Shown: positions 251 through 29,877, counted from the first letter of the stretch. The stretch is 56,488 bases of DNA from Nanobdellota archaeon (GCA_043825215.1 JBDRSD010000065.1:1-56488), one strand, 5' to 3'. Program-made: numbers and translations. Notes: generated from the letters alone by a model not told the origin.

Positions 251-323
251 CTTGTTCTGGGAAAACGAAATCTTTTTCTGCACAAATCATTTGGTCACCA
301 AATAGATAAATATTAATATACAC

Positions 324-617: not shown

Positions 618-639
618 CGAATCTTTGATTTTCTGACTA

Positions 640-1536: not shown

Positions 1537-1622
1537 ACATTGCTCTCCTGACGCAGTGGTTTATAAAGATTTAGGATTTACATGGTTCCAAAGAATACCA
1601 AATGGTTCTCAATGTGACCACG

Positions 1623-2264: not shown

Positions 2265-2355
2265 GAGAAAAGGAAGTGCGAGGATGTTTATGTAAATTGT
2301 GATTCGAGAGAATACTTGCCGTCCGAAGGCCTGAAAAAGGGCTGGTCGACGATAT

Positions 2356-2436
2356 GTTCGTCGTCTTTTCCTCCCGCAACCTGACACCAGCGCTCCCGCG
2401 CTGGATTTACCCTCGTGTTCCGCGAAGAACTAAACA
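2356..2436 (-). ncRNA. Copy B (3'-partial) of the family-1 structured RNA-like element
   Basis: The reverse complement reads ..GTTTAGTTCTT..CCAGCGC-GGGA-GCGCTGG-TGTCAGGTTGCGGGAGGAAAAGACGACGAAC. It is near-identical to copy A in inverted orientation and sits between the rSAM stop (2443) and the HAD start (2264). Confidence 0.55.
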
Positions 2437-2442
2437 AGAAGG

Positions 2443-3351
2443 TTATGACGATTCAACCGGAGGGTCAGTAAATACCCATTCTTTGGTTATGGTCTTGCAG
2501 GGGCATACTGGGATGCCGTATTGTTCTCGGGTATCTTTTCCAAGTGATACGACAAGACCTTGACAGATGGACGGATCAGCTACGTGGTGCAGGATATATC
2601 CTTTCTCAATAGAGCCGAGACAAAAAGAGGGGTTGTCGAGTAGGAGAACGCAAGGGTAGATGTCACCTAGAGGGTCGACATGGAGGATGTCATCATCGTT
2701 GATCAGGCAAGCCGGATTTTCCATGGATGACGATTGGAGGACGTATGGTGCAATGCGTACTTGCAGTTTCCCTTTGGTCTCTTGAATCTTCTCGACGAGT
2801 TTTTGATATGCGGGGATGGGCAGAGTCATGCCTTCGTGGCATCTGCCGACAGGGGTTGCGTAAAGAAATGAGATCTTGTCAACACCCATGTTTTCACATA
2901 AGGATATGATCTTGGAATACTCGTCGTTGTTGTCTTTCATGATGACTGACCAGACAGCAACATCTATGCTGAGCTCGCGGGCATAGCGTATCATCTCAAC
3001 TGTATGCAGAAAGGTATCAAGTCCTCTGATTTGATCATGCGTCTCTTCCAGGCCGTCTATGCTTACATTTATTTGGAATAGGTATTGCCTGTTTCTCAGG
3101 AGAAATTCTCGTGTCAGGAGATTGCCATTTGTCTCTATCTTGACTTTTGTCCGCTGGCTTGCGTAGGAAATCATGTCTTCAAGGGATGGATGTTTGAGTG
3201 GCTCGCCTCCTCCGATGATGAGAAACTCCATAGGGATAGTGTCTATCATTTTCTTGAATACTGCAGGGTCAATGTAGTCTTCTCGTCTTGGGACTGCACA
3301 ATGCACGCAGTGTGCATTGCAGTCGTAGGTTACATGAAGGAATACTCTCAT
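2443..3351 (-). CDS. Radical SAM enzyme with a Cys-containing C-terminal (SPASM/twitch-like) extension
   Basis: CxxxCxxC 'YDCNAHCVHC'; 'IIGGGEPL'; C-terminal 'VDPLGDIYPC...FCLG'. The start is taken at ATG 3351 (MRVFLHV), which forms an ATGA overlap with the upstream gene's stop. Confidence 0.8.
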   Translation of the reverse strand: MRVFLHVTYDCNAHCVHCAVPRREDYIDPAVFKKMIDTIPMEFLIIGGGEPLKHPSLEDMISYASQRTKVKIETNGNLLTREFLLRNRQYLFQINVSIDGLEETHDQIRGLDTFLHTVEMIRYARELSIDVAVWSVIMKDNNDEYSKIISLCENMGVDKISFLYATPVGRCHEGMTLPIPAYQKLVEKIQETKGKLQVRIAPYVLQSSSMENPACLINDDDILHVDPLGDIYPCVLLLDNPSFCLGSIEKGYILHHVADPSICQGLVVSLGKDTREQYGIPVCPCKTITKEWVFTDPPVESS

Positions 3352-4082
3352 CTGATTTCCCAGTGTGGATTTGTTTTTGAGAAGGTGATTGTGCATGCAG
3401 GGAATTTCTCCCGGAGTCGTTCTGCCAATGCTTCCATTCCGATCTGTTCGGATATGTGACCAATGTCGATGAATGTACAATCATGAAAATGTGCTGCTTC
3501 TGCGAGGTGGTGTGTCATGTCTCCTGCAAGGTAGAGGTCTATGTTTTCCTGTATTGCTTTTTCGACGTGATGCTGGTTGAATCCTTCACCGCCGTGGATC
3601 GCTATTTTTCTGATTGTGGTTTGTTTTTGGATGATGTTGAATGCCGGAAGCTGCAATTGGTGTTTCAACATAGAGATGATGTCATTGAGTTGTAGCGGTG
3701 AAAGTTCGGTGATGACGACTGTTCCATCATCTAATGTCTTAGTTATTGTGCAGGAGGGAAAGAGTGATTTGGCCATTGCCTTGTTGATGTCTCCGCTTTT
3801 GTCGATTCGGGAGTGTAGGACATAGATGTTTGCGTCTTTGTTAAGAAGGGAATAGTACGGATTTGTCACCTTCTTTTCCTTGCCGAATTTTGGGGGGTGA
3901 TGCAGGATGAAGAGGTCCGGTTTTAATGTGATGGCATGAGGATTGAGTTCTGCAGCAACGCAGATTGTCTTGCAGGGTTTGTCCGGTTCTCCTTGGAGAA
4001 ATCCATCTGTTGTATCCCAGGGCGCGCGAAGGCTTTCGGGATAGTTGCGATCCAGGTATTGTGTGATAGCGCGGATGTTCAT
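3348..4082 (-). CDS. NIF3/YbgI-family dinuclear-metal protein (GTP cyclohydrolase 1 type 2 homolog)
   Basis: N-terminal 'ITQYLDRNYPESLRAPWDTTDGFLQG', 'ILHHPPKF', 'IAIHGGEG' and 'AGDMTHH', matching the NIF3 His-rich metal-site pattern. Confidence 0.65.
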   Translation of the reverse strand: MNIRAITQYLDRNYPESLRAPWDTTDGFLQGEPDKPCKTICVAAELNPHAITLKPDLFILHHPPKFGKEKKVTNPYYSLLNKDANIYVLHSRIDKSGDINKAMAKSLFPSCTITKTLDDGTVVITELSPLQLNDIISMLKHQLQLPAFNIIQKQTTIRKIAIHGGEGFNQHHVEKAIQENIDLYLAGDMTHHLAEAAHFHDCTFIDIGHISEQIGMEALAERLREKFPACTITFSKTNPHWEIR

Positions 4083-7582: not shown

Positions 7583-9754
7583 ATGGCAAAGATGGTTGAT
7601 AGGGTGATGAAATGCGTGACCAATCCTGTGCAGATTCGAAACATCGCGATCTGCGCGCATATTGATCATGGCAAGACGACTTTTTCTGATAATCTCATCG
7701 CTGGTTGCGGTATGATGTCAGAGGACTTGGCAGGAAAAGCTTTGCAGCTTGACTTTCATGAGGATGAGCAGGCAAGAGGCATCACGATTGATTCGTCAAA
7801 CATCAACATGGTCCACGAGGTCGAGGGAAAGGAATATTTGATAAATCTTATTGATACTCCCGGGCATGTAGATTTCGGCGGTGACGTAACGAGAGCTATG
7901 CGCGCTGTTGATGGTGCAATTGTCCTGTGCTGTGCTGTTGAAGGTATCATGCCGCAGACAGAGACTGTTTTTCGTCAGGCATTGAAAGAAAGGGTGAAGC
8001 CGATCCTGTTCATTAATAAGGTCGACCGCTTGATTAAGGAACTGAAGTTGACTCCTGAGAAGATGCAGGAGCGTTTTGTCAAGATCATCACAAATGTCAA
8101 TAAGCTTATTGAGGATCTTGCAGAGACGGATTACAAGGAGAAGTGGAAAGTGAATGTGCAGGATGGAAGTGTGTGCTTCGGTTCAGCCTTTCACAACTGG
8201 GGACTCTCACTTGATTACATGCAGAAGAAGAACATCACATTCAAGGACATCATTGACGCGTATGAGAATGACACCTGGAAGGAATTGAAGCATAAGGCCC
8301 CGATCCACGAGGTAGTGTTGAACGCTGTCATCAAGCATCATCCGAACCCGATCGAGGCGCAGAAGTACAGGATCCCGAAGATCTGGCATGGGGATCCTGA
8401 GAGCACTCTCGGAAAGAGCCTTCTTGCGTGCGATCCGAAGGGTCCGCTCGCGTTTGTCGTGACAAAGATTGTCATCGATCCCCAGGCAGGGGAGATCAGT
8501 GCCGGCCGTCTCTTCTCAGGAACCGTAAAGAAGGGTGATTCCATCCATCTCAACAGGGCAAAAATCAGCATGCGCTGCCAGCAGATATATATCTATAATG
8601 GAGCGAAGCGCGAGATTGTGGATAACATCCCTGCAGGAAACATCATCGGTATCGGCGGGCTTAAGGGAGCGTATCCAGGAGAGACGGTGACAAATGAGCC
8701 TGACGAGCCGTTTGAGCAGATCACGCATCTCTTTGATCCGGTCATCACAAAGGCTATCGAAGCGAAGAAACCGTCTGATCTTCCGAAGCTCATTGACGTC
8801 CTTATCATGGTAGGAAAGGAAGATCCGAACATTGTCATCGAGATCAATCACGAGACTGGCGAGCATCTCATGTCTGGAATGGGAGAATTGCATCTTGAGG
8901 TCATTGAGAACAGGATTAAGTCTGAGAAGGGTGTTGACATCCAGACAAGTCCGCCGATCGTTGTCTATAGGGAAGCGATCACGAAAAATTCTGGACGTCA
9001 TTTTGAGGGAAAAAGTCCGAACAAGCATAACAAGCTCTATTTTATCGTCGAACCGCTCGCTCCTGAGATGACCAAGGCGATAAAGGAGAAGAAGATTCCT
9101 GAAGGGCGCATGAAAAAGAAGGATCAGGAACTTTGGAAGGCATTGGAAGAAGGAGGCATGGACTCGCAGGAATCAAGGAGGGTGCGTGATGTCTTCAAGG
9201 GCAACATCTTTATAGATGGAACGCGCGGAATTGTGCATATCGGTGAGATCATCGAGATGGTGCTTGACATGTTTGAGGATGTCATGACTAAGGGCCCGAT
9301 AGCGAACGAGCCATGCATCAACGTGAAAGTGACGTTAGATGATGTCAAGCTGCACGAGGATGCCATCCACAGGGGCCCTGCACAGTTGTATCCTGCTGTC
9401 CGCGAGGGTATCAGGGGCGCGATGAGCCAGGCGGGTCCTCTCATGTACGAGCCAGTACAAGTGCTTCTTTTTGAGGCGCCGGTCGCGTTCATGGGAGAGA
9501 TATCAAAGCTTGTCCAGAACAAACGCGGGCAGCTCCTTGACATGACGCAGGAAGGCGAGTTGGTCGAAGTGAAGGCAAAGCTTCCGGTAGGCGAGATGTT
9601 CGGGATTTCAAGCGAGCTCCGAAGCGCGACAGAAGGGCGCGGCTCGTTCTTTGTCATCGACCAGGCCTTTGAGAAGTTACCAGTTGAATTGCAGGACAAG
9701 ATCGTCAGGAATATCAGAGGCAGGAAAGGATTGAAGACTGACGAAGGCGGATAA
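7583..9754 (+). CDS. fusA: Translation elongation factor aEF-2
   Basis: 'AHIDHGKTT', 'DTPGHVDF', 'NKVDR', and the diphthamide loop 'HEDAIHRGPAQ'. Confidence 0.95.
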   Translation: MAKMVDRVMKCVTNPVQIRNIAICAHIDHGKTTFSDNLIAGCGMMSEDLAGKALQLDFHEDEQARGITIDSSNINMVHEVEGKEYLINLIDTPGHVDFGGDVTRAMRAVDGAIVLCCAVEGIMPQTETVFRQALKERVKPILFINKVDRLIKELKLTPEKMQERFVKIITNVNKLIEDLAETDYKEKWKVNVQDGSVCFGSAFHNWGLSLDYMQKKNITFKDIIDAYENDTWKELKHKAPIHEVVLNAVIKHHPNPIEAQKYRIPKIWHGDPESTLGKSLLACDPKGPLAFVVTKIVIDPQAGEISAGRLFSGTVKKGDSIHLNRAKISMRCQQIYIYNGAKREIVDNIPAGNIIGIGGLKGAYPGETVTNEPDEPFEQITHLFDPVITKAIEAKKPSDLPKLIDVLIMVGKEDPNIVIEINHETGEHLMSGMGELHLEVIENRIKSEKGVDIQTSPPIVVYREAITKNSGRHFEGKSPNKHNKLYFIVEPLAPEMTKAIKEKKIPEGRMKKKDQELWKALEEGGMDSQESRRVRDVFKGNIFIDGTRGIVHIGEIIEMVLDMFEDVMTKGPIANEPCINVKVTLDDVKLHEDAIHRGPAQLYPAVREGIRGAMSQAGPLMYEPVQVLLFEAPVAFMGEISKLVQNKRGQLLDMTQEGELVEVKAKLPVGEMFGISSELRSATEGRGSFFVIDQAFEKLPVELQDKIVRNIRGRKGLKTDEGG

Positions 9755-9755
9755 A

Positions 9756-9771
9756 TTTTTTTATCGTTTTT
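9756..9771 (+). terminator. Oligo-T terminator after fusA
   Basis: TTTTTTT and TTTTT runs immediately after the TAA stop. Confidence 0.45.
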
Positions 9772-9857
9772 CTATATTTTCCTGCCTTGTTACTAAGAGA
9801 CTTTTTCAAGAATGGGCAGGTCATCTTCTCGAACGAACTATTCCCCTTTCCGGACCA

Positions 9858-10036
9858 GTGGTTCGTCGGACATATCTCCCGCATCTGATCCCAGCGCTCA
9901 CGCGCTGGATTAACCCTACTGCAATCGCGCAGGAACTAAACGCCAACGTCGTTGGCGGCCAGTCCCTTGCCTTTGGCAAGGGTTATTCGCGTGCATTGCA
10001 CGAGAAGTGGGGCGGGAGTAAGTCCTCCCTGTCCGT
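9858..10036 (-). ncRNA. Copy C (full-length) of the family-1 structured RNA-like element
   Basis: Read on the minus strand, a long-range helix CTCCCGC (10012-10018) / GCGGGAG (9876-9882) encloses a chain of hairpins: CGTGCA-AUG.., CCCTTGCC-AAA-GGCAAGGG, GCCAACG-AC-GTTGGC and CCAGCGC-GTGA-GCGCTGG (9891-9908). GNRA loops appear only in this orientation. Confidence 0.6.
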
Positions 10037-10078
10037 CTACGATTTTAACTCGAGTTATGGTTCTTACCGAGAAAATGA

Positions 10079-11710
10079 TTATCTTTTGCTTCGTCTAAAT
10101 CCCTTTAAGTATTGGCTGAACTGTCTTGTCATGCGCATGCGTATTTCGTATCCTTGATCCTTCAGGTAGTGAAGTGCAGTCTCTGTTTCTGAAACGAGCA
10201 TTGGGCCTCGGAGTTGATCATTCCACGGCAGGTGTTCTGCGTGGAGTTTCTTTTCATTTCCGTAAGTAGGGTGGATTCTATAGAGGTTTATCACATGTTC
10301 TTTTTTTTGTGTGTGATGGTGGAGTTCCACGAGGAGTATCTTTCCTTTGTGTTTTCCGTCAAGTATTTTTTCGAGAGTGGTTTGTTTTCTTTTCTTCGTG
10401 AGCTTGAATCCGACAAGAAGCATCTCTGTATCGTCCATGTAGGGAAGGCCGTCTTTTGGGAATATCTCTGTCATCTCGTATCCATGGGCATCGCTGAGTT
10501 TTGCGACGAGTTCTCTGCAGAGGGCGTATTGGTCGTCTGTCTGGTAGGCAGGCGTTGTTCCCCCCCTTCCCTGTGCGACACGGATTCTTTCTCGGATAGC
10601 ATCATTGAGCGTCACGAACACGACTGCTTCATCCTTCAGGTGATGGGTGATGAGTTCTGTGAGTGTCTCTTTTCTCTCTTCACACCAGCCGCCGACATAG
10701 TCGAGGAAGGCAAGGTTGAATCGCATATCATAGTATGTCTTGAGCGCATCAAGAATCGGCCCGTGGTGAAGGCGTAGCCTTTTGAAGATCTCACCCCCAG
10801 AAATTTCATCGCAATGAATAATGATGGAGTGCATGTAGTCTGCGACTTTCGGATCAATCTCTGCTGCAAGGCTCTGACAAGAATCAACCTGAAAGTTCTT
10901 TGTAATCTTAATGTAGTCGATGAAGTTTGCGGAAGGAAGGCCTACATACGACAAGTCTTTCGCGCCTGGCAAGTGGCGTTCGATTGCTTTGTTGAGTTCC
11001 TCTCTGGCAAGTCTCTTGTAGGGCCCGTTCCAGTGCTTAGTTCCGACCAGTTGCATCTGTACAAGTGTATCGATGCTTTTAATGGCTTGACGGACATATT
11101 CCTTTCCCAAAACACCAAAGTCGCTGACAAATTTTTTCACTGTGGAACTTCGCAATCGCATCCTGCTCGATATGTCTGACACCTCTAATCCGTCAGAGAT
11201 GGAGTTTCTGATGGTGTCTCTGACTGCATTATCGCTTGGGTTGTCGGGGGAGGAAAAGTATCCCACTTTTCTCCAGTATTCGTACCAGGGTCCAAAGAGA
11301 CTGATGATCTCTCTTGCGGAAGGGACATCGCCATGTCTTTTCGCAGTTCTTCTGAATCTGTCCCATTCTTCTGTAGTTATTGGTGCACTGAATGTCCGGC
11401 CAAGTTCGAGTATGTTTTGTCGGTAGACGCGTTGCTGCCATCTGGTTTTTTTGGAGATACGAGATGGCACTTCAAGAAGTTCTTCTAATGGTTCTTCCTT
11501 TTTCTCGACTGGTTCCTCTCTTGCTTTTCTTTTCGATTCTTTGATGATTGTCTCTGTGAAGTATCCAGCTTGAGTGAGAATCGCTTCGATCTGTTCCTTT
11601 GTCAGGGTATCATCGATATCATATCCGAGATCAAGAGCATAGGAATGGATCTCAGAGAGGGATATGCCCTGCTGTTCAGAAACCCTATAGATACTCGTCG
11701 TCCTGGGCAT
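10079..11710 (-). CDS. Hypothetical 543-aa protein (last gene of island 1)
   Basis: The N-terminal third has 'VPSAREIISLFGPWYEYWRKVGY', resembling the homing-endonuclease-associated HTH repeat (..FGSW..A...G). The C-terminal half has weak Rossmann/methyltransferase-like strand motifs ('DLSYVGLPSANF', 'NLAFLDYVGGW'). No confident family. Confidence 0.55.
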   Translation of the reverse strand: MPRTTSIYRVSEQQGISLSEIHSYALDLGYDIDDTLTKEQIEAILTQAGYFTETIIKESKRKAREEPVEKKEEPLEELLEVPSRISKKTRWQQRVYRQNILELGRTFSAPITTEEWDRFRRTAKRHGDVPSAREIISLFGPWYEYWRKVGYFSSPDNPSDNAVRDTIRNSISDGLEVSDISSRMRLRSSTVKKFVSDFGVLGKEYVRQAIKSIDTLVQMQLVGTKHWNGPYKRLAREELNKAIERHLPGAKDLSYVGLPSANFIDYIKITKNFQVDSCQSLAAEIDPKVADYMHSIIIHCDEISGGEIFKRLRLHHGPILDALKTYYDMRFNLAFLDYVGGWCEERKETLTELITHHLKDEAVVFVTLNDAIRERIRVAQGRGGTTPAYQTDDQYALCRELVAKLSDAHGYEMTEIFPKDGLPYMDDTEMLLVGFKLTKKRKQTTLEKILDGKHKGKILLVELHHHTQKKEHVINLYRIHPTYGNEKKLHAEHLPWNDQLRGPMLVSETETALHYLKDQGYEIRMRMTRQFSQYLKGFRRSKR

Positions 11711-11715
11711 TGGTC

Positions 11716-13029
11716 TTACTTTCTTTTTCTTCGGGTCAGCGTCGCCTCACAGCCGCGTACCTGGTAGTTTTCCCAGCCACGCTTTGCCATTGCTGCATAG
11801 AATGCATCTCTTGATTCTGCATCTTTTTTCACTGCACTAGGTATCACGCCAAGCTCGCGGAGGACTTCTCTCTTCTCGACGAGGTACTTGTCTGTTGCCG
11901 ACATTCCTGAATCTGCAGTTTCGCGAGGGGACTTATGTGCTTTTTTCTCGTATGCGAGATGCCAGCAATGGATTGCCCTGCCATCAATACCTTTTGCATG
12001 GAGATTTTTATATGCTTCTTCATGGGTTTTTCCTGATTCACGAAGAGTTGCATAAGTGCTAGAACCGATCGATTTTTCTCGGGTTCTTTTTCCTGATGTT
12101 GTTTTCCGAAGAACCTTTTCAAATCCCTGCCTGTATCCGTGGACTACTCTGCCGTTGATGCCTGCCGCCTTGAATTGTTCCATGATGGTCGCATGGTCGA
12201 CGCCCTGTTCTCTCAGTCCTTTGTATCCATCATATCTGGTATCGAGTTCTGATTGTTCAGGCGCATCTTGGACAGTGTCGTCGATTGTTGATTCTTGCGT
12301 CAGTTTTTCATGGGTAAAGTAAAGAGCCATATGAAGGCCTATCTTTGCTTGGGCAAATGTCTTGGGATGCGATGATCTCAGGTCGTCAACTATTGCAATG
12401 CCCAGCTCGCGTGCAATCTTCCTGTTCTCGACGGGGATACTGACTGCGACAAGATCCTCTCCATACACTGTCTCTTGTGCCCTGGTTTTGATCTCCATAA
12501 CCTTGAGGCTTTTGGCAACAGCCTTGACTGTGTAGTTGAAGAGGTCTGCTTCAGAGCGTCCTTCTTTGGTATGGCTTCCCTTGTAGACGGGAAGAAGCAC
12601 AGCAACCTGGCTGTCGCTTACCACAGTCACCAGATCAAGGTCCAAGGGCTGGACTGTCTCGATATCCTGTTTTGCAGAAAAGTATTTCTTTCCGATCCGC
12701 CTCACAAGTTCTTGCATATGCGCTGCCGCGGCTTCTTTGACTTTATCTGGCGCGTGTTGCAGGGTTTGCACGTATTCTTCTGAGGTGTAGTAGTGGTATG
12801 CCTCGATATCCTGTTGATGCCCTGTTTCCACCCTCTCGATTATTGCGAGCTTTTCAAGCGTGCGCGTGGATGCGATCCCTCGTTCCTTGAGCGCTTCTGC
12901 CTGCTTCTTGAGTTCTTTCATCATTGCGCGTTCAGTCTTTTGGTCGATTTTCTTGTTGATCGCATCGTATGCGTCTTGTCGTTCTGTTTCAAGCTTTGTT
13001 ATGATGTCATTGACGGACATGTGTTTCAC
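11716..13029 (-). CDS. Hypothetical 437-aa protein with three C-terminal tandem ~40-aa repeats
   Basis: The repeats are 'YKGLREQGVDHATIMEQFKAAGINGRVVHGYRQGFEKV', 'YATLRESGKTHEEAYKNLHAKGIDGRAIHCWHLAYEKK' and a degenerate third. There is a coiled-coil-like N-terminus. Gaps to the neighbouring genes are 26 nt (upstream) and 5 nt (downstream). Confidence 0.6.
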   Translation of the reverse strand: MKHMSVNDIITKLETERQDAYDAINKKIDQKTERAMMKELKKQAEALKERGIASTRTLEKLAIIERVETGHQQDIEAYHYYTSEEYVQTLQHAPDKVKEAAAAHMQELVRRIGKKYFSAKQDIETVQPLDLDLVTVVSDSQVAVLLPVYKGSHTKEGRSEADLFNYTVKAVAKSLKVMEIKTRAQETVYGEDLVAVSIPVENRKIARELGIAIVDDLRSSHPKTFAQAKIGLHMALYFTHEKLTQESTIDDTVQDAPEQSELDTRYDGYKGLREQGVDHATIMEQFKAAGINGRVVHGYRQGFEKVLRKTTSGKRTREKSIGSSTYATLRESGKTHEEAYKNLHAKGIDGRAIHCWHLAYEKKAHKSPRETADSGMSATDKYLVEKREVLRELGVIPSAVKKDAESRDAFYAAMAKRGWENYQVRGCEATLTRRKRK

Positions 13030-13055
13030 CCTTATTTGTTTTCTTCATCTCTTTT

Positions 13056-14672
13056 TTATCGGACTATGCCTAATGCTTTGAGCGTGCTATTATAGATTGT
13101 CAGGAAGACCTCTTGCTGGCGTTGGAGCAGTGTCTGGACAGGAAATTCAGGATTCTTGTCTGTCATGAGCTTTCCTTCGAGCCCTGATATCTCTTTTGCG
13201 AGGATTTCTGCATTGTAGCGCTCGCGTTCCTGGTCAGTGCCATTGGTATGCCTCCTTTCGTAGTCTGGATGCGCTGTGTTGACGCGCAAAAGCCCGTATC
13301 CGGTGTCAAGGATGCTGTGGAGCCCTCGTTCAGGTCCATGGAATTCCTCGTGGAGTGGCTTGAAAGGGAGCCTGCCCTTGGGAGGTTCTCTTGGCGAGTC
13401 AGTGCGTGGATTGGGGGTCCTGTTGATGTCTCGGATGAGCTTCTTTCCTATTTTTTTCTTTTCTGTGATACCTTGTTCTGTCCGTACAAGATCCCAATCG
13501 ATAAGTTCTAACAGGTGTTTCAGGTCGTATGCCTTGAGGAGAGCATTCATGACCTTGTAGGTGATCTCATTGTCTCTATTTCTTGATGTGAATCTCGCAT
13601 TTTCTCTGATGGCTTCGCACATGTCTGGCACAATGTCTGCTTTGACATGGTTTGCAAAGTCCCTGAAGCGGTCATTGTCGCTGATTGCCATGCGCTGGGG
13701 GTCAAGTATGGTCAGGTATCCTTTGGTGTTTGTCGGGTGGGGCCAGACGTTGATGAATCCGTAGAACTTGCCGACTTTTGGCGAGAAGGGGTTCTGGAAT
13801 TTTGTATCCACTCCTTTGAGTTCGTTGATGACTTCCATGAGCTCTTCGTTTTGGTTGAGGTTTCCGATGACCCGGACATCCTGGATGTGGAGTGCGATCT
13901 TTTCGTTGGTGCCGTTCGGGTTCATCCAGAGATGTGCATGGATGGTTCCATAGCTTGTCTCGATTGTCTTGTCAATGACTAGATAGCATTGCACGCCGTG
14001 TATTGCAGGGTCATCATAGTATGGTGCCATGACTTCTGTCTCTTTTGCAGTCTTTCCTCTCTTTCCCCTGTATTTGATGGTGATTTCCGGAGAACGTATT
14101 CCTTCTCGCACGAAAAGCGGTGCATAAGTCTCGCTGAGGAATTCTGCGATCTTTTTTGGTATGAATTTCTGCTCGAAAGTCTTGGCATCGATGCCGTCAA
14201 TCATCACTTCCACGCCGTGGCGGAATCGCCGGTCAGGATCGAAATCGTCAAGCGCGATGTCATCAAGTGATTCCCAGCCTTTTTCAAAGAGCTTTATCCG
14301 AGAATACTGGCTTTCTGACCCGTCCAGTGGTCTTGTTGTTATCATGCAGCTTTCTGCAAAGGTCTGGTAGGCATGCAGTCCGAATTGCTGAAATCCTATC
14401 TTTGTCGGGTCGTGCCTTTTTTTGGAGAGGCCGAATTCTTCAGGTATTGCATACAGTTCCCTATGATGCATTCCAGGACCGTTATCTGTGAGGATGATTC
14501 TCCCGCTCTCCTTGTCTAGGAGGATGTGTATTCTCATGCGTTCATCAGTATGAGTTCTCTCGTCGAGTGAGTTGGATACGTATTCCTTGAGTGCGAGGTA
14601 GGGGTTCTGGAACCGTGCAGTCCTGCTGATCGTGAATGCTTCGTCTCCTATCTTGTATGGTCTCATGGTCAT
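13056..14672 (-). CDS. GHKL-superfamily (Hsp90/MORC-like) ATPase, island-1 paralog
   Basis: N-box 'EYVSNSLDE', G1 'LTDNGPGM', G2 'DPTKIGFQQFGLHAY', and C-terminal 'RVNTAHP', which is shared with the 576-aa GHKL at 25198-26928. Its start overlaps the upstream stop (TAATG). Confidence 0.75.
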   Translation of the reverse strand: MTMRPYKIGDEAFTISRTARFQNPYLALKEYVSNSLDERTHTDERMRIHILLDKESGRIILTDNGPGMHHRELYAIPEEFGLSKKRHDPTKIGFQQFGLHAYQTFAESCMITTRPLDGSESQYSRIKLFEKGWESLDDIALDDFDPDRRFRHGVEVMIDGIDAKTFEQKFIPKKIAEFLSETYAPLFVREGIRSPEITIKYRGKRGKTAKETEVMAPYYDDPAIHGVQCYLVIDKTIETSYGTIHAHLWMNPNGTNEKIALHIQDVRVIGNLNQNEELMEVINELKGVDTKFQNPFSPKVGKFYGFINVWPHPTNTKGYLTILDPQRMAISDNDRFRDFANHVKADIVPDMCEAIRENARFTSRNRDNEITYKVMNALLKAYDLKHLLELIDWDLVRTEQGITEKKKIGKKLIRDINRTPNPRTDSPREPPKGRLPFKPLHEEFHGPERGLHSILDTGYGLLRVNTAHPDYERRHTNGTDQERERYNAEILAKEISGLEGKLMTDKNPEFPVQTLLQRQQEVFLTIYNSTLKALGIVR

Positions 14673-15433
14673 TATTTCACCTTGTGTGGTCCGTTTTCAA
14701 GCTTGACTCGCGTGTCATAGATATGGAATTCTCTTTGCAGTTCTTCTGATGTCTTATGGATGGTCTGGAGGAGGTAGATGAGGTCTCCAAGATCTTTTTT
14801 TGGAAGTGCTTCTTGCAGTTTTTTCCGTCTCGCTTCTGATAAGGCAGGGAGGGAGAGGAGACTATAGGCAAGGTTGTACACGTTATGTACCATCATGCGC
14901 ACATATTCTTCTGGATTATGTGAGGTCATCTTATTGAATTCTTCTGGAGTCTTCACTTGCGGGCCTTTAAGGTATGCGTCAATGCCTTGCAGGAGCGCGC
15001 CGAGTATTTCTCTTGTCTGTTGCAGTGCTTCGGTTCTTGGTGCTTGATAGGTATCGCTTTGTACAGTTGCTTCCAGCGGGGATTCAGGTTCATTTCCTAG
15101 AAGCGGATGTTTTGAGAGTGGAAATTGTTTCACTAATTTTTGGGCTTCTGGCGAATCATAGGGCAGGTTTGCTCGCTCACTCCACGTACTTGGGTGAAGC
15201 AGGGGATCCCTTGTTAATGAATAAATTTTGTCTCGGGTTTTGCAGGGGACATATATCGGATGACTTCCTTCGCGATACAGTTTAGATATTGTAAAATGTG
15301 AAAGGCCTGAAACTCTTGCTGCTTCTGCATAGGTGAATTTAGGATCACCTTTTTGCATGGTATCAAACCATTCTTGAAAGCGTACTGAGAGGATATTCTT
15401 TCTGGCTTTTTGTGATTTTGGCTTTCGTTTCAT
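14672..15433 (-). CDS. HTH-domain protein (first gene of island 1)
   Basis: N-terminal 'KFTYAEAARVSGLSHFTISKLYREG' fits a helix-turn-helix. The rest of the protein is unknown. Confidence 0.6.
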   Translation of the reverse strand: MKRKPKSQKARKNILSVRFQEWFDTMQKGDPKFTYAEAARVSGLSHFTISKLYREGSHPIYVPCKTRDKIYSLTRDPLLHPSTWSERANLPYDSPEAQKLVKQFPLSKHPLLGNEPESPLEATVQSDTYQAPRTEALQQTREILGALLQGIDAYLKGPQVKTPEEFNKMTSHNPEEYVRMMVHNVYNLAYSLLSLPALSEARRKKLQEALPKKDLGDLIYLLQTIHKTSEELQREFHIYDTRVKLENGPHKVK

Positions 15434-15597
15434 AGTGCTAAACCGTTATCTCTCTAGTATAGTCTTCACTCCCCTCTTTTGACATATAGAGAAGTCTATT
15501 GGTATTTTTAAACTTTATTGATATTATCCACTTATAAATGGTAAATTCAAGCATGTTCGGCAAGAGAGCACCCAAATCCGAAAGCGAATACTCTTGA

Positions 15598-15785
15598 GGT
15601 TCGAAATGTGCGCCGGACTTTCCTCCCGCGACCTGACACCAGCCCTCCCGGGCTGGAATAATCCTCGCATTCGCGAGGAACGAAACACCAATCAAAGATT
15701 GGCGGCCAATCCCTTGCTTTCGCAAGGGTTGATTGCGTGCATTGCACGAGAATCGGGCGGGAGCAAATCATCCCCTCCTCCAACC
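15598..15785 (-). ncRNA. Copy D (full-length) of the family-1 structured RNA-like element
   Basis: Minus-strand reading: long-range helix CTCCCGC (15757-15763) / GCGGGAG (15623-15629). Hairpins are CGTGCA.., CCCTTGC-GAAA-GCAAGGG, CCAATC-TTT-GATTGG, CCTCGC-GAAT-GCGAGG and CCAGCCC-GGGA-GGGCTGG (15639-15656). That last stem carries a compensatory G-C/C-G swap relative to copies A, B and C. Confidence 0.6.
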
Positions 15786-15823
15786 AAAAAACATTAAATG
15801 TGAAGCATATCATTGCGTATAGA

Positions 15824-16528
15824 ATGGAAAAGGAACTAGAGAATATCGGCCTCACCCCTATTGAAGCAAAGATCTATCTTGCATTGATCGACCTTGGCCG
15901 CACGCAGGCAGGCGTGCTTTCCAGAAAGACAGGCATCCATAGGAGAAGCATCTATGACGCACTTGACAGGCTGATTGAGAAAGGTATCGTCTCCTATATT
16001 GTAGAGAATAATAAGAGGTATTATATTCCCTCGCACCCGGATGTGTTAAAGGCGATAGCTGATCGCATGCATGGAGAAGTGACAGGAACAATAGATATTC
16101 TCTCCCAGCGATATTCGCTTGAGAAGGAGCGCCAGGAGACTGTATTCTACCGCGGCAAGCAGGGTATCAGGTCTGTCTTTGATGATCAGATCGTGCATAA
16201 GGAACCAGTCTATGTCATCGGCGGAAGGAGGGAGGCTGCAGACATCATGCAATTCTATCTAAAACACTACACTCGAGACAGGATAACACATAACATCAAG
16301 CTTTTCCTTCTCGTGTCTGGAACGACATTGTCCGATAAGATCCCACTCTCAGAAATCCGATACCTTCCTGAGAATTATTTCGGCCTTGTCGCAACAAACA
16401 TCTGGGCAGACAGGGTTGCAATCATCATCTGGCGGGAGAATCCTGCATGCATTCTCATAAAGGACAAGGAGGTCGCAGACTCCTACATGAATTATTTCAA
16501 GATGCTGTGGAAACTCGGGAAGAAGTAA
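15824..16528 (+). CDS. TrmB-family transcriptional regulator
   Basis: 'LENIGLTPIEAKIYLALIDLGRTQAGVLSRKTGIHRRSIYDALDRLIEKGIVSY' winged-helix N-terminus. Internal ATG at 15824; the longer ORF overlaps RNA copy D. Confidence 0.8.
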   Translation: MEKELENIGLTPIEAKIYLALIDLGRTQAGVLSRKTGIHRRSIYDALDRLIEKGIVSYIVENNKRYYIPSHPDVLKAIADRMHGEVTGTIDILSQRYSLEKERQETVFYRGKQGIRSVFDDQIVHKEPVYVIGGRREAADIMQFYLKHYTRDRITHNIKLFLLVSGTTLSDKIPLSEIRYLPENYFGLVATNIWADRVAIIIWRENPACILIKDKEVADSYMNYFKMLWKLGKK

Positions 16529-20315: not shown

Positions 20316-20431
20316 ATTTCTTCAATATACTCCATTTCGAAATGTCATTTCTCTTTTTTTCTGTGTTCTGTAATTCGTTGAAGTAGTAATTCAGGTTCTT
20401 TCCATGCGCATGACAATTTGCCAGAAACATC

Positions 20432-20505
20432 CCGAAGCGTAAGCTTCGGTATAACATAAAGAATAACGCCGCTTGCGCGGCAAAGTATTTCCGTGCCTTG
20501 CACGG
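20432..20505. repeat. Cluster of three short GC-stem hairpins, including a two-hairpin module repeated at 34452-34494
   Basis: CCGAAGC-GTAA-GCTTCGG (20432-20449), GCCGC-TTGC-GCGGC (20468-20481) and CCGTGC-CTT-GCACGG (20491-20505). The last two plus their spacer match the reverse complement of 34452-34494 at about 33/39 positions by eye, and the differences lie in the loops. Confidence 0.4.
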
Positions 20506-20571
20506 GTGCAGTTCATCTTTCAGATAATCTCTCCACTAGCGACAAACTAATAACTACACACTACCAACTAT

Positions 20572-20865
20572 TTACTCGATCTTCACGACAATTCCGCCGA
20601 CCCAGCTTGCTAAGAGGTTGTAGACTGCTGCCGTGCATACTCCCATCAGGAATCCGATGATGCCGTAGAGGATGGGAAAGACTATGATGAGCCCCCAGCT
20701 CAAGCTTGCAAGGGGTTCGAATCCCGTGACCTCCGTTCCCGTACCACCCCCGAAGTTGACAACTATGGCCATGATGAGCCCATAGATGAGCCCAAAGAGG
20801 GCCATGCCAGGCATCATGATTTTTCCATAGGACACAGGTCCGATTCTTGTTAGTTTTCCTTCCAT
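20572..20865 (-). CDS. Small membrane protein (terminal gene of the GHKL/MoxR operon)
   Basis: 2-3 hydrophobic helices and a Gly-rich loop 'NFGGGTGTEVTG'. ATG 20865 is preceded by GGAGGAAT; an alternative ATG at 20880 abuts the nuclease gene's stop. Confidence 0.55.
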   Translation of the reverse strand: MEGKLTRIGPVSYGKIMMPGMALFGLIYGLIMAIVVNFGGGTGTEVTGFEPLASLSWGLIIVFPILYGIIGFLMGVCTAAVYNLLASWVGGIVVKIE

Positions 20866-20880
20866 TTTATTCCTCCGCAT

Positions 20881-21232: not shown

Positions 21233-24200
21233 TTATGCATTCCAGGCGACAGGATTTTGGGTTTGCTGCGGAGGTGGAGGGGCAGGTTTTGGCTTGATGA
21301 TAGGGTAGTGTTCCTCGTAACGCTTATTAGCGACACACACTCCTGGAACATTGTTTTCCTTTGGACGTGCATCGAATGCTATGTCCTGTTTTTTAAGTTC
21401 CCGCACTCGCTGTTCTTCTTCGTATAGACGGCGGAGTGTCATGTGGGCAAGCTGGTTGAGATAGCGAAGATCGAAGTAATCATAGGGTTCTCTCTTGTGA
21501 AGGGAGAGGCCGATGCGTTCCTGGAGATTGAGTCCTTGCTGTTCCATGTAGTCCATAATTTTCCATCGGAGTTCTTGTTTCTTCCTGTATAATCCTTCGA
21601 TTTTTTCAGCGTCGCAGAAGGTATCCCCAAGTCTGAAGCTTTCATCTGTTCCGATGGCCTCGTGCGCATAGATGTGCAGCATCCTGTCGAGCAGGGTGAG
21701 TGCAACGGCATCTATTCTATTCTTGCTGCCAGTCGCGTATGCTTTATCAAGCTGTTTTAAAGGAGTATGAAGATTGTTGAGGTGGATTGTCCAGACTCCT
21801 TTCTTCTTTGAGGTGATGCCGATATGGCTTGGCTGGCTGACGAGAGTGACGTCGTTATAGGCGAGCTGAATTCTGTGGGGTTCTGTCCTGATCGCTTCGG
21901 AAAGGAGGGAGTCTAGGCTTTCTATCGCGTGGACATAGTCGCGAAGTGTTCTTCCGCAGTCGACGGTCGAGAGCATCTTGTCCAACCTGTCCAGAGGCAT
22001 GTCGTCGAATGAGTCTCCTGAACGGATGCCATCACCGAGGAAGTTGTAGACGACGCTGTTATAATACCAGTCCTTGATATTAGCAAGGAAGTTGTTCCAT
22101 TTATTCTTTCGGTTCTTATGCTGTTCTGCGCGAAGCAGGGCTTTGACTTCAGCCTTTCTTGCCCGCTCCAGTTCTTGTGCTTCCCTTTGTCGTCGATTTT
22201 CGAGCTCTTTGGCTATCCTGTCTTGTTCGTCTCGTTCTTTCTTGTATTTCTTCCGATTTGCTCTCTTTTCCTTCTTCTTTGTTGCTTGTTCTTGGTGGCG
22301 GTGATACCACGCATTGATTTTTTCTATCGTCTGCGGAATGTCACGAGGATCAAGAACTTGAACCAATGGCAAAAGGCCGTTCGTATACGTCCACTTCCCT
22401 GCAAGTCCTGCTCCCTTCCCTCCATAATAGAGAGCAATTGCAGGTGATATGAGCGCGATTCCTGAATATTTCGCAATCTTTCGCCCTTTCGTCTTCGCCC
22501 AATGATGTACTCGCTCAGGGGTATTTTGGAGGTATTGCACGAACCTGTATGCATAGTACTTTCCTGGAGAATAGGATCGACGAAGCTCGTCGATTTGAGT
22601 AGGTGCGCCATCTCTGAATCCTTCTCGGGTTTCTTTGATTAAGTAGATGCCTATGTGAGCCATGCCTATGGGTGAAAGATAATAAAGGACAGAGGCAAGT
22701 CCCTTTGCTTTCTTTTTCAGGTTATCGAGGTGGTCTTCAAGTATCTTGACGTCGTAGGTGCTGCCGACTTTGTATTTGATCTCTTCGAGCCTGGACATGA
22801 CTGCCTCGACGATTGGGTTGGTCTTGTCAACGACGTATTCGTCATGGCTTGGACAGCCGCCAGTGATGAGTTTTCTCCTGAGGTAAAGGTCGACAAGGTC
22901 GTCGATGGAGAGCTTGACTGTCTGTTTCTTGAGGGAAGCATCTTTATCTCTGCTTCCCTGGCTGCGGTCATAGTCAAATCGCTGTGACCATTGTTCTCCC
23001 CATAATGCCTCTTCGAAGCGTTCGAGTATTGACTTTTTCTCTGCTTCTTCTCCGATTGTCCCCGTAACAGGTTTCTCTTTTTGTTCCCTATAGAAATAGG
23101 TGGCGTTGATGATTTTCTTTTCCATGATCTTTTGGAAGAAGGCGTCCTTGCGCATGTTGGAGAGGTATTTCTTGGTGATCTTCTCCCGTTGCTTGTTCAT
23201 CTTCCGTGTTCTTTTTTCTTCGACATTGACATAGAGGCCAAGGCCGTGGAGTGCTCGTTGTCCAAGGTAGTGCAGTCCGTCATAGATGTTGACAGGGATG
23301 TGGACAAGAGCGCTTCCTATCGCTGGCAGCGCGTGATAGATGGTGGTGACAAGGTCGGAGAGAGAATGATGTTCAGTGTCATTGCGTCTGTTTGATTTTT
23401 GCCTTTTGGACTTCATCTGTTCCCGGTTCTCCCTGGCGAGCTTTATTCTTGAGAAATAGTCGACAAGATCGTCGATACAGCCAGGGATTGCCTTTGCGAG
23501 ACGATAGATGCCATATCCTGCAAGTCCGGTGGCTGCTGCCAGAACAAGACCCTTTCCCACGTATTCTAATGGCTTCCAGCCCCAATGCTTGACTGTTTCG
23601 TAGAGGCCAAATCCGAGAGCTCCTGCACCGATGACGTATGGCGCTGCTTGCTTTGCTCTGTGGGAGATCCTGTGGCCGAGGTATGCAAGGTCTGCCAGAT
23701 TTTTTTCTCTTGCCAGTCTTCGTCTCTCTTTCCTGTTTGGAGCATCTGCCTTCCATTTGGCTATTGCTTCTGAGATGTCATTAGGAAGGTCGGTGAAGGG
23801 ATACGTGACAGTCTTGTATATGGAATAACCGCCCAGATAGAGGATGCGAAAAGGCAGCTTTGCAGCAACGGTTGCTCCGTCGAGGGTTGCAGAGATGCCT
23901 TTGGCGAGGTATGTTCCCATGCGTCGCTTGAACGTGTATTCTTTCTGTCTTGCTGCGTAGACCTGGTTGTTATACCGTTTGGTAAAGATGTCGCTTAAGG
24001 TCTGCATGAGGCTTCCTGAAGAGTGGTAGACGATCTCTTCATCAGCGAGGATGACGTCGAGGAAGAGCTCTTCAAATCCTGCGTAGATGCCATCCAGGAC
24101 TGCTGGGGAGTGGTCTGCTATGATATTGTTCCTCCCTTTGGTGAGGGTGACATGGTCCGGCACGTCGACCCAGAAGTCGAGGCCTATATCTGTAAGGGAA

Positions 24201-25201
24201 TTCAGAAGGGTTCTATGGATGGACTGGTCGCTGAAATCCGCATTGTCATACTTGATGAAGAGGCCTCGTTGGGTGAATAGGATTTTGTTGAGGTTCTGGT
24301 TTCGGTATTTGAACCGTGGGTCGGTGAACCTGCCTGCGAGCTCTCGTTTTGACACTCCAAGAGTCATTAGTTTTGTGACATCATCAAGCGTGATAAGGAC
24401 AGGTGATGATTTCGAATAGGTACTCCTGAGCGTGTTTATCTGGTCATCGTCAAATGTTATATCTGCGGCGGCCTCGTCGACCATGCCCAGGTGTTGGTAG
24501 AGTGCATCCTTGATCTGTTGTCTGGATGTCTTATGCGTCGGTATGAATGCAGTCACTTCTGTCCCTTGTTCTCTGGTGTTCAAGGGAGGGTGGAAGCCGT
24601 TCATGGATTGTGGTATGAATCTTGCCATCCACGTGCCGTCCTCTGAGTAGACGTATGCCTGTGCCACGTTTTCCCTACCAGGTGTCCTCGTAACGACCTT
24701 GACGAGATCCGCAAAGTCAACGATGGAATACCAGCCAATGCCGTGTTCTCCGATCTTGGTGGGGTCGAACTCTTTTCCTGAATTGTAGGGGATGATGAGA
24801 TCGCGGACCAATGTCTTGAGATCCATGCCGCAACCATAGTCACGGACGTGGAGGACGAGGTGTTCTGGTTGTTCTTCCAATGAGAAGATGACCCTTCTGT
24901 CGGTTGATCTTGCGTCGTAGGAATCGATGGCATTCTGGCCGAGCTCGCGCAGTGTGGTATGCTGTTCTCCGAACTGCGATTCGATCGTGCGTTCGACGAT
25001 CTTCGGATAGAGTTTATGGGCTGTTGTGGATTCCCTTGTTTCTTCGATGAGTTGGTCAAGTTCCTCTTCTTCGACATCCGGTTTTGCTACCTCTGCTAAG
25101 AAATGGTCGAAGTCCCCTGCCATCTGCATCATGACAAGATCTGCTATGGGGATGTCGATCGATTTCTCTTCTTTGGTGATCTCTTCGAGGAGTTGTTTCA
25201 T
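21233..25201 (-). CDS. 1322-aa protein with an N-terminal Hsp90-like GHKL ATPase, membrane segments and a Lys/Arg/Glu coiled coil
   Basis: N-box 'RELGQNAIDSYDA', G1 'VRDYGCGM', G2 'DPTKIGEHGIGWYS'. Several hydrophobic helices (e.g. 'AAPYVIGAGALGFGLY', 'GLVLAAATGLAGYGIY', 'IALISPAIALYYGG'). A charged coiled coil 'KKKEKRANRKKYKKERDEQDRIAKELENRRQREAQELERARKAE'. ATGA overlap with the upstream gene. Confidence 0.8.
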   Translation of the reverse strand: MKQLLEEITKEEKSIDIPIADLVMMQMAGDFDHFLAEVAKPDVEEEELDQLIEETRESTTAHKLYPKIVERTIESQFGEQHTTLRELGQNAIDSYDARSTDRRVIFSLEEQPEHLVLHVRDYGCGMDLKTLVRDLIIPYNSGKEFDPTKIGEHGIGWYSIVDFADLVKVVTRTPGRENVAQAYVYSEDGTWMARFIPQSMNGFHPPLNTREQGTEVTAFIPTHKTSRQQIKDALYQHLGMVDEAAADITFDDDQINTLRSTYSKSSPVLITLDDVTKLMTLGVSKRELAGRFTDPRFKYRNQNLNKILFTQRGLFIKYDNADFSDQSIHRTLLNSLTDIGLDFWVDVPDHVTLTKGRNNIIADHSPAVLDGIYAGFEELFLDVILADEEIVYHSSGSLMQTLSDIFTKRYNNQVYAARQKEYTFKRRMGTYLAKGISATLDGATVAAKLPFRILYLGGYSIYKTVTYPFTDLPNDISEAIAKWKADAPNRKERRRLAREKNLADLAYLGHRISHRAKQAAPYVIGAGALGFGLYETVKHWGWKPLEYVGKGLVLAAATGLAGYGIYRLAKAIPGCIDDLVDYFSRIKLARENREQMKSKRQKSNRRNDTEHHSLSDLVTTIYHALPAIGSALVHIPVNIYDGLHYLGQRALHGLGLYVNVEEKRTRKMNKQREKITKKYLSNMRKDAFFQKIMEKKIINATYFYREQKEKPVTGTIGEEAEKKSILERFEEALWGEQWSQRFDYDRSQGSRDKDASLKKQTVKLSIDDLVDLYLRRKLITGGCPSHDEYVVDKTNPIVEAVMSRLEEIKYKVGSTYDVKILEDHLDNLKKKAKGLASVLYYLSPIGMAHIGIYLIKETREGFRDGAPTQIDELRRSYSPGKYYAYRFVQYLQNTPERVHHWAKTKGRKIAKYSGIALISPAIALYYGGKGAGLAGKWTYTNGLLPLVQVLDPRDIPQTIEKINAWYHRHQEQATKKKEKRANRKKYKKERDEQDRIAKELENRRQREAQELERARKAEVKALLRAEQHKNRKNKWNNFLANIKDWYYNSVVYNFLGDGIRSGDSFDDMPLDRLDKMLSTVDCGRTLRDYVHAIESLDSLLSEAIRTEPHRIQLAYNDVTLVSQPSHIGITSKKKGVWTIHLNNLHTPLKQLDKAYATGSKNRIDAVALTLLDRMLHIYAHEAIGTDESFRLGDTFCDAEKIEGLYRKKQELRWKIMDYMEQQGLNLQERIGLSLHKREPYDYFDLRYLNQLAHMTLRRLYEEEQRVRELKKQDIAFDARPKENNVPGVCVANKRYEEHYPIIKPKPAPPPPQQTQNPVAWNA

Positions 25202-29102: not shown

Positions 29103-29877
29103 GGTAAAAGGCCTCCTGGGGAAGGGTGAATGTGAGGTGGTGATGGGCGGCGAGGGTGAACTGGTGTCGTACGCTGTCAAAGAAGGATCCGGCTCTTGTG
29201 AGTTGGTTTGCAGGGAGCCCTGAATGGTGGGGGCTTTCGAGTGTGTAGTCAAGATGGGTACCGTCGTCGGATCTGACAAGTGTTACGCGCTCTTTGAGGA
29301 ATTCGTGGCGAATGTCAGTTCCATTGTAGAATCCGTGGTCTGAACTGATCTGGTCGGCTATGCTGAGCAGGGCGAGGAGGAGGGCTTCTGTCTGCGATTG
29401 GTGCTCTTGACGGAATGATCTTGTCAGGTCTCCTTTGCTTGTGCCATATATGATGAGCTGCTTGACAAGGTCTGGGGTGTCTGGGTGTTCTGAGAAGACA
29501 AGTGTCATGCCTGGGAGATGGACAAAATTGTTGCGTCGCCTTTCTGTAATGAGTGATTGGAGGTCGGGAGGCAGAGAATAACTGGAAAGAGTGTCGTAAT
29601 ATGCTTCGATCTCTCCTCTGAGCAGGGAGATAATGTCTGTTTGGGCGATTCCTTTCAGGCGGATGCTTGTGACGTCTGGCCTGTTGTATGCCATCTCTAT
29701 CATGAAAGATAGTGTCCCTCCTTTTTCAGCGATTGTCGCTTGCCTTGTTTGCAGGTCATCTGCGTACCTGCGAGCATATTCTACAAGTCCATAGTGTAGG
29801 AATGCGTCGAGGGAAACACGTTTGTTGCCTCCTTTCTCTTCATAGAAGAGCTCTCCGATTCTGGAATAGTCTTTCAT
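29092..29877 (-). CDS. Hypothetical 261-aa protein (second gene of the operon)
   Basis: Clean ORF with an ATGA overlap to the MoxR gene's stop. No recognisable motif. Confidence 0.6.
   Translation of the reverse strand: MKDYSRIGELFYEEKGGNKRVSLDAFLHYGLVEYARRYADDLQTRQATIAEKGGTLSFMIEMAYNRPDVTSIRLKGIAQTDIISLLRGEIEAYYDTLSSYSLPPDLQSLITERRRNNFVHLPGMTLVFSEHPDTPDLVKQLIIYGTSKGDLTRSFRQEHQSQTEALLLALLSIADQISSDHGFYNGTDIRHEFLKERVTLVRSDDGTHLDYTLESPHHSGLPANQLTRAGSFFDSVRHQFTLAAHHHLTFTLPQEAFYHDP

Follow-up and report, generated by a model that had tools for sequence, protein, structure and literature searches.

A multi-copy hairpin-chain element with conserved stems in a DPANN archaeon

A stretch of Nanobdellota archaeon DNA of 56,488 nt, here called the window and the basis of all copy counts that we give for it, contains four copies of a non-coding element, A to D, none of them longer than 195 nt. 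The full unit, of ~180-195 nt, folds into a closing helix around five short, G+C-rich hairpins, each with its own sequence. Between the two full-length copies, C and D, the stems have been kept paired while the loops and linkers drifted, the presence of the element varies between close relatives, and an insertion sequence (IS) is found within or beside such hairpin chains at more than one site. The interpretation towards which we lean, tentatively, is that of a lineage-specific, modular, interspersed multi-hairpin repeat, comparable to repetitive extragenic palindromes (REPs) and bacterial interspersed mosaic elements (BIMEs) or to MITEs (miniature transposable elements with inverted repeats), which would be constrained as a single strand and is probably transcribed together with its neighbours.

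Four copies and their common fold

The original prediction, made from the sequence alone, had placed two full and two 3'-partial copies in the window, and all four exist essentially where it had put them. A covariance model (R1) built from the four copies and scanned over the window matched copy D (15597-15790, minus strand) at 15597-15772 with 195.5 bits and copy C (9850-10045, minus strand) at 9850-10027 with 187.3 bits, both being full length, and the partial copies A (141-259, plus strand) and B (2345-2441, minus strand) with 108.1 and 87.9 bits, respectively; the next-best match in the window, at 14.2 bits, lies far under all of these. The motif CCAGNNNGNNANNNCTGGNNTCAGN{2,3}GCGGGAG, which takes in the terminal hairpin along with the closing helix P1 on its 3' strand, likewise occurs four times, at 200-233 (+), 2371-2404 (-), 9876-9908 (-) and 15623-15656 (-), against 0 expected. 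Both partial copies contain H4, H5, P1's 3' strand and the tail, to which A adds hairpin H3 and B a linker; over their final 50 nt the two are 98% identical. C and D, which had been judged to be about three-quarters identical, agree at 129 of 173 aligned columns (74.6%), with 8 further indel columns. The linker GTTTNGTTC, also claimed to be conserved, is indeed kept among the copies, while the conserved 3' tail attributed to every copy was recovered in A, B and C but is not well conserved in D. A proposed divergent relative at 49778-49985 does not belong to the family, as it gave no model match at E<=10 and consists of long helices in another architecture.

The minimum-free-energy folds of C and D have the same shape. 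The helix CTCCCGC/GCGGGAG that had been drawn around the hairpins is present in both as the 7-bp P1 (CUCCCGC/GCGGGAG), which is extended across an internal loop by a 4-bp helix, P0 (GGAY/GUCC), and encloses H1 (CGUGC-AAU-GCACG), H2 (CCCUUGC...GCAAGGG), H3 (CGCCAA...UUGGYG), H4 (of the CCUC/GAGG type) and H5 (CCAGCSC-GKGA-GSGCUGG). In D, where P0 reads GGAU/GUCC, P1 pairs 15757-15763 with 15623-15629 on the minus strand, and the hairpins lie at 15736-15748 (H1), 15711-15728 (H2), 15686-15704 (H3), 15663-15678 (H4) and 15639-15656 (H5). In C, again on the minus strand, P1 pairs 10012-10018 with 9876-9882, and H1, H2, H3 and H5 were located at 9990-10002, 9964-9982, 9941-9957 and 9891-9908. The compensatory swap described for the terminal hairpin is real, CCAGCGC/GCGCTGG in A, B and C being replaced by CCAGCCC/GGGCTGG in D, and the loop of this hairpin is GGGA or GTGA as had been noted; the GAAA loop reported for another hairpin occurs in D only. 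An inspection by eye of the P0/P1 internal loop found neither a K-turn nor a bulge-helix-bulge.

The strand that had been proposed as the sense strand folds better than its complement in all four copies, with energies of -86.7 kcal/mol (z -3.4) against -77.9 for D, -90.0 (z -6.3) against -86.2 for C, -46.4 against -41.3 for A and -36.3 against -26.5 for B. G-U pairs are more numerous on the sense strand in three of the four, copy A being the exception.

That the element is more than a simple repeat, as had been argued, is borne out by the manner in which C and D differ. When 36 pairs (72 positions) were defined on D and then checked on C, differences fell on 5 of the 72 paired positions vs 39 of the 101 unpaired ones (Fisher p = 1e-6). 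None of the 36 pairs is broken, whereas a random placement of the 44 substitutions should break 12.7 pairs, and not one of 20,000 such simulations matched this. The changes in the stems consist of two double compensatory substitutions, U-A to C-G in H3 and C-G to G-C in H5, and of a single G-U to G-C. In the four-copy alignment 99% of the cells pair, and a change on both sides is seen in 3 of the 36 pairs, a number reached in 18 of 500 shuffles. The covariation that had been claimed is thin: most pairs are invariant, and of the three with changes in both partners one includes the poorly aligned copy B in its count. Five hairpins that remain intact at 25% divergence imply either a selected function of the single strand, i.e. 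as RNA, or a mechanism at the DNA level that maintains palindromes. A coding function was considered and rejected; D has an open reading frame (ORF) with a Shine-Dalgarno sequence and AUG that is absent in C, short ORFs are not shared among the copies, and the lengths of the C/D indels are not divisible by three.

Partial copies, insertion sequences and related hairpin chains

The partial copies A and B are the result of secondary damage. The left edge of the window (1-140, minus strand) is the terminal 140 nt of an IS1182-family element, which on the plus strand ends ...GACAACCCC, and the 5' edge of copy A at 140|141, directly after the position of H2, coincides with the junction to it. Copy A thus lacks its 5' part because the IS cut it at 140|141, and we infer that it was once a full copy; the earlier description of A as a 3'-partial copy was correct in that A is partial, but the cause is the IS and not an origin as a 3' fragment. 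Copy B, which starts 2 nt past the stop codon of a radical SAM gene (2443..3480, minus strand), is truncated or decayed at that stop codon, yet its final hairpins and T-run have been retained. Beyond it come a small hairpin, a T5 run at 2334-2338 and then a HAD hydrolase gene, and a T5 run also follows copy A, at 273-277, so that the T-runs predicted after A and B are both in place. A Logan contig of the same organism (L001) has its position 1 at 2367 of the window, within the 50-nt segment common to A and B; a break inside the A/B repeat implies that the repeat fragments short-read assemblies. In practical terms, the elements break assemblies and would be mis-called as small ORFs.

The IS itself is 1834 bp long, with the ends GGGGTTGTC...GACAACCCC. 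Window positions 1-141 are 100% identical to positions 555-415 of contig L071 and to the IS end on contig L073. The window is continued to the left by L003, a JGI contig from the same species that differs by one substitution in 455 nt, and there the transposase gene lies just outside the window, as an ORF for a 575-aa DDE transposase with DUF772 and DDE_Tnp_1_6 matches, which the source annotation calls an IS1182 family transposase. The IS occupies 21-1748 (minus strand) of L003, 416-2249 of L071 and 31-1864 of L073, the transposase being 100% identical on all contigs, and each of these three distinct known sites is within or beside hairpin-chain sequence. In two of the three the IS occupies the H2|H3 junction of the C/D family, once in each orientation; the flank on L073 is a homolog of the H1/H2 linker and of H2, in a variant whose innermost pair is swapped (CUUGGC-AAA-GCCAAG). 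Related IS1182-family copies, with transposases 71-74% identical, are not within hairpin chains. The placement of the IS suggests a structure-directed or element-directed targeting. REPs and BIMEs are favoured targets of particular IS in bacteria, and the landing of the IS1182-family element in or beside hairpin chains, at three of three known sites, would parallel this and offer a natural system for structure-directed transposon targeting in archaea. On another metagenome contig, a Y1 (IS200/IS605 TnpA-type) transposase gene (L074, 4716-5246, minus strand) adjoins a related IS1182-family element.

A second family in the window, consisting of the elements F and G, has the same architecture as C and D, i.e. 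a closing helix around four or five short hairpins. Element F (34340-34530, plus strand) has a 14-bp closing helix and about five hairpins (-76.6 kcal/mol, z -6.55). Its paralog G (20355-20570, minus strand), which gave a weak model match of 13.4 bits, begins directly behind the stop codon of the gene at 20572..20880 (minus strand, 102 aa) and faces the gene for ribosomal protein S10. F and G have a common core of ~45 nt, about 90% identical by eye, and a common tail, while their accessory hairpins differ. An H1-like hairpin, CGTGC-NNN-GCACG, and the linker following it are common to F, G, C and D; the hairpin motif occurs four times in the window vs 0.02 expected, and in ~1 Mb of other loci it was not found except on L001, which is the same DNA as the window.

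Hairpin chains were also found on two other contigs. In a sister species (EF-2 88% identical), a closed chain of seven hairpins of unrelated sequence (L068, 3138-3350, plus strand) stands directly after the EF-2 stop codon, on the EF-2 strand, with a z of -8.45, two C(UNCG)G tetraloops on that strand and a final T7 run. Contig L071 carries ~14 short hairpins over ~500 nt (150-415 and 2250-2370) in a chain that spans from a gene end to a T6 run and is interrupted by the IS; the hairpin chains of this lineage can thus far exceed 180 nt. No hairpin chains were seen in the other Woesearchaeota loci examined. One further hairpin cluster, at 3127-3247 of L039, was rejected as an unrelated ~53-nt tandem repeat of ~2.5 copies, which lies in another Woesearchaeote, in the intergenic DNA upstream of its L7Ae gene.

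The host is a Woesearchaeota/Nanoarchaeota-like DPANN archaeon, which also occurs in the data sets SRR26275509, JGI Ga0180009 and SRR6514730, and the window is chromosomal. Among its genes are those for L7Ae, S28e, L24e, NDK, EF-2, EF-1alpha, S10, an archaeal prepilin peptidase and Elp3, and the nearest matches of EF-2 come from metagenome-assembled genomes (MAGs) labelled Woesearchaeota, Nanoarchaeota or 'archaeon', the top one being 90% identical. In most relatives the EF-2 and EF-1alpha genes are adjacent; here they are 8.9 kb apart, and the insert between them holds C, a four-gene orphan cassette, D, and TrmB, PIN and HAD genes. In the MAG DeMMO2_30 (L004, EF-2 90% identical), three of the cassette genes lie on a short contig beside EF-2, syntenic without C and with 27-50% protein identity, and the gap of 6 nt between EF-2 and the cassette has no element. 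In another relative (L067, EF-2 89% identical) nothing follows EF-2 in a gap of 32 nt. Because of these two loci without the element, C is neither part of an inserted island nor an att (attachment) site. The mobile or dispersed nature that had been suggested for the element gains some support, and no more than that, from its absence after EF-2 in two of the three closest relatives, of which the third, L068, has its unrelated chain there, and from the occurrence of copies in unrelated contexts; the empty sites of the relatives are too diverged to align, and no direct repeat was found at the fuzzy boundaries of the elements.

Outside the species the searches came back empty. The strict motif had 0 matches in 185,579 GTDB species genomes, and its sole occurrences in JGI metagenomes were the same-species copy A and a single match due to chance. 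Two patterns gave 0 matches in viral contigs, blastn against phage and plasmid records gave no match, and the model had none in ~0.83 Mb of EF-2 loci from ~60 Woesearchaeota or in the four closest relatives. On the evidence of public data, the family is therefore limited to this species or genus.

A possible role at transcript ends and the competing explanations

The positions of the elements are consistent with a role near the ends of transcripts. C lies between the convergent EF-2 gene (plus strand, ends 9754) and a 543-aa gene (minus strand, ends 10079), and G, too, is located between convergent genes. B, G and the chain of L068 start within ~20 nt of a stop codon on the same strand, and C starts ~35 nt downstream of one. 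T5-T7 runs end A, B and the chain of L068, as well as the right side or flank of the chain of L071, and oligo-T runs are an archaeal termination signal. All six elements of the window fold better, by 3.8-13.2 kcal/mol, on the coding strand of their co-directional neighbour, and five of the six, again with the exception of A, have more G-U pairs on that strand; this agreement of strand and neighbour lends weak support, since only B, F and A are informative.

It can be hypothesized that the units spread or duplicate as DNA, given their unrelated contexts, their presence or absence between relatives and the gain and loss of hairpin modules, and that the element acts single-stranded, most likely as RNA that is transcribed jointly with the co-directional gene beside it. 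It would usually lie in the interval from a stop codon to an oligo-T terminator, or else where two genes converge. At such sites, the hairpin cage would block 3'-to-5' decay, as in bacterial REP/BIME arrays, and would also reinforce termination and insulate the adjoining transcription units.

The likeness to REPs and BIMEs lies in the extragenic clusters of short, G+C-rich hairpins, which typically follow stop codons or separate convergent genes, and in the action on transcript 3' ends that is ascribed to them and that we propose for the element. In contrast, REPs are many copies of one palindrome with a 5' GTAG, mobilized by REP-associated tyrosine transposases (RAYTs), whereas here the hairpins all differ, a long-range closing helix is present, the host is an archaeon, no RAYT was seen in the window and the copy number appears low. 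With MITEs and with the Correia, ERIC, BOX and bcr1 elements it shares a size of 100-200 nt, a non-coding, intergenic and multi-copy character, inverted-repeat-like ends and a variable presence, and with BOX also the modular organization. It differs from MITEs in that no target-site duplication, sharp termini or parent IS was found, that homology extends past the closing helix, and that a multi-branch ring of five independent hairpins takes the place of one long terminal-repeat hairpin. The prokaryotic MITEs and structured interspersed repeats have been reviewed (PMC10969869, PMC11602168), and some of them have conserved RNA folds. Compared with REP/BIME and MITEs together, the present element is archaeal, has five different hairpins in a fixed order within a closing helix, is modular across families, and is without the defining REP sequence, MITE termini and, in the window, a RAYT gene. 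A further comparison is offered by the GC clusters and double-hairpin elements of fungal mitochondria, short G+C-rich modules that shuffle in the intergenic DNA of compact genomes; these differ in being organellar, with two hairpins per unit and without a closing helix or a conserved multi-hairpin order. A literature search by the names Woesearchaeota and DPANN found no description of such elements in these archaea, and we know of almost no described non-coding biology in the DPANN archaea, whose genomes are tiny and compact.

Several points weigh against an interspersed repeat that is transcribed and constrained as RNA. The transcription of the elements rests wholly on inference, C and G have no clear T-run after them on their own strand, and D is located in a divergent promoter region, downstream of no gene, and is yet fully intact. 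The chains of L068 and L071 fold equally well or better on the opposite strand. The covariation is drawn from four or five sequences in which most pairs are invariant, the copies were counted in the 56-kb window only, and transposition machinery, termini and target-site duplications were not identified for the element in that window. Moreover, the conservation of the stems could reflect palindromes in the DNA, and template switching that restores palindromes could conserve stems without any selection on RNA (PMC8794818).

The intactness of D outside the 3' region of any gene fits a rival explanation, in which C and D would be stand-alone genes for stable small RNAs of ~175-190 nt, each with its own TATA promoter and a product acting in trans as a scaffold or regulator, A and B being pseudogene fragments. 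We regard this as doubtful, while noting that the 5' end is paired with the 3' end in P0/P1, an arrangement known from many stable RNAs, that GNRA-type loops are found on the sense strand only, that the stems are conserved at 25% overall divergence, and that the conserved H1 hairpin, which F and G share, could be a protein-binding handle. An A/T-rich box had been claimed before both full copies, and TATA-like boxes are in fact present ~20-25 nt upstream of P0, in C at 10042-10049, ~20 nt from P0, and in D at 15793-15799, but the evidence for promoters of the element is ambiguous, and the D-side box fits the divergent TrmB promoter. It is exactly at the expected site, 26 nt before the TrmB ATG (15824), which is the right spacing for a divergent leaderless TrmB mRNA, and for this reason it cannot be claimed as D's own promoter; its A-rich upstream side, too, suits the plus strand. 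The box of C, for its part, would initiate transcription inside P0/P1, and no clear terminator follows either C or D. The closest relatives are without the family, which would be unusual for a functional trans-acting RNA, and the gain and loss of hairpins between F and G and the ~500-nt chain of L071 are array-like rather than suggestive of discrete genes.

A bolder proposal would make the element a new class of modular, mobile structured RNA of DPANN archaea, with a multi-way junction of short hairpins around a shared recognition hairpin, CGUGC-NNN-GCACG, a dedicated cellular role, e.g. as a 3'-end cap or insulator or as a protein scaffold, and the part of a landing site that the resident IS1182-family element would specifically recognise. 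We consider this unlikely.

Unlikely, too, is a purely selfish MITE, in which the closing helix represents terminal inverted repeats and the palindromes are kept by template switching or gene conversion, with no role for RNA. The closing helices do resemble terminal inverted repeats (14 bp in F; 4 bp of P0 and 7 bp of P1 in C and D), and the element is small, non-coding, multi-copy and variably present between relatives, but no target-site duplication or sharp termini were found, and the homology between C and D and between F and G passes the closing helices. The putative inverted repeats are also unlike those of the sole IS seen, which has the ends GGGGTTGTC / GGGGTTGTCTATAAAG. No transposase was found in the 56-kb window; more precisely, no integrase, reverse transcriptase, Y1 transposase or transposase is present in it, bar the IS terminus on its left margin. 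Where palindromes are perfect, either strand folds, and a single template-switching event can yield double 'compensatory' changes (PMC8794818). Against this, the strand asymmetry with its G-U pairs argues for a function of one strand, and linkers such as GTTTNGTTC are conserved in addition to the stems.

We do not take the element for a known RNA gene that has diverged. The claim that no known class fits it holds, since Rfam 15 gave 0 matches in the whole window at gathering scores, a search at E<=10 over 9700-16000 and 15400-15830 gave nothing relevant (Archaea_SRP, RNaseP_arch, RNaseP-T, riboswitches and HEARO/omega-RNA included), and ARAGORN found 0 tRNA or tmRNA genes in the window. A highly diverged known RNA, such as a reduced RNase P or signal recognition particle RNA, a riboswitch or leader, a TnpB/IscB omega-RNA or an IS110 bridge RNA, is accordingly very improbable, even if DPANN RNAs are often atypical. 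No TnpB, IscB or IS110 recombinase was found among the larger ORFs of the window that were scanned, the neighbours of all four copies included, C is not a leader because it lies between convergent genes, and two full copies at 75% identity plus fragments are unlike an essential single-copy RNA. One feature of D deserves mention. A 15-nt string in it, GGGAGGAAAGUCCGG (15617-15631, minus strand), which is preceded by a hairpin, equals what we take to be the universal conserved region I (CR-I)/P4 sequence of RNase P RNA. The other copies do not preserve it, their counterparts being GAGAUAUGUCC in C, GGAAAGGAC in A and GGAAAAGAC in B, and the GUCC of the string pairs with the 5' GGAY as P0 in both C and D. 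By eye, none of the other conserved regions of RNase P RNA is apparent downstream of the string in D, before the cassette promoter ~100 nt further on. With the string in D only and no model match, RNase P RNA was rejected and the resemblance judged to be due to chance.

The least probable of all is that the copies are att-site duplications left where integrative elements had targeted an RNA gene at its 3' end; full and 3'-partial copies do coexist, and C and D are direct repeats that flank a 5.5-kb orphan-gene cassette at a variable EF-2/EF-1alpha spot, but the cassette and its surroundings have no integrase or recombinase, C and D share only 75% identity and each is full length, L004 has the cassette beside EF-2 without C, copy A is partial through the IS insertion, and A and B are inverted rather than direct, with core ribosomal and translation genes between B and C. 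The att reading of the original prediction was abandoned on these grounds.

Other features of the window

The orphan cassette between C and D (10079-15433, minus strand) encodes four proteins of 253, 538, 437 and 543 aa. The 538-aa protein alone has a weak GHKL/MutL-type ATPase fold, together with a weak PHROG match to which no function is assigned in that resource, and the 437-aa protein has internal repeats. None of the cassette proteins had a PADLOC or PDB match, NCBIfam was uninformative, and a homolog search with the GHKL protein returned only itself. Homologs of the cassette were seen only in the MAG DeMMO2_30, at 27-50% identity vs 90% for EF-2.

A second block of large orphan genes, with element G just to its left, extends over 21233-31556 (minus strand) and is possibly an island with a defence or mobile character. 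Among its products are two GHKL ATPases of the sacsin/HSP90-like type (1322 and 576 aa) with weak TmtA-like PADLOC matches, as well as proteins of 784, 261 and 560 aa without a domain match.

The segment 49750-50020, which contains the supposed relative dismissed above and is unrelated to the element, is G+C-rich and very stable (-122 kcal/mol, z about -5 on either strand) and is intergenic, with a 223-aa gene on one side and the triosephosphate isomerase gene on the other. Rfam gave no match for it even at E<=10, and it is possibly an unrecognised RNA gene. Finally, the region 53070-55990 contains paralogous genes of 346 and 437 aa, one of them with a bacterial Ig-like domain; the segments 54078-54367 and 55441-55730 inside these genes are 84% identical, and an A-rich sequence, AAAAAAAGAGAAAAAAAATTTA, recurs beside three genes.

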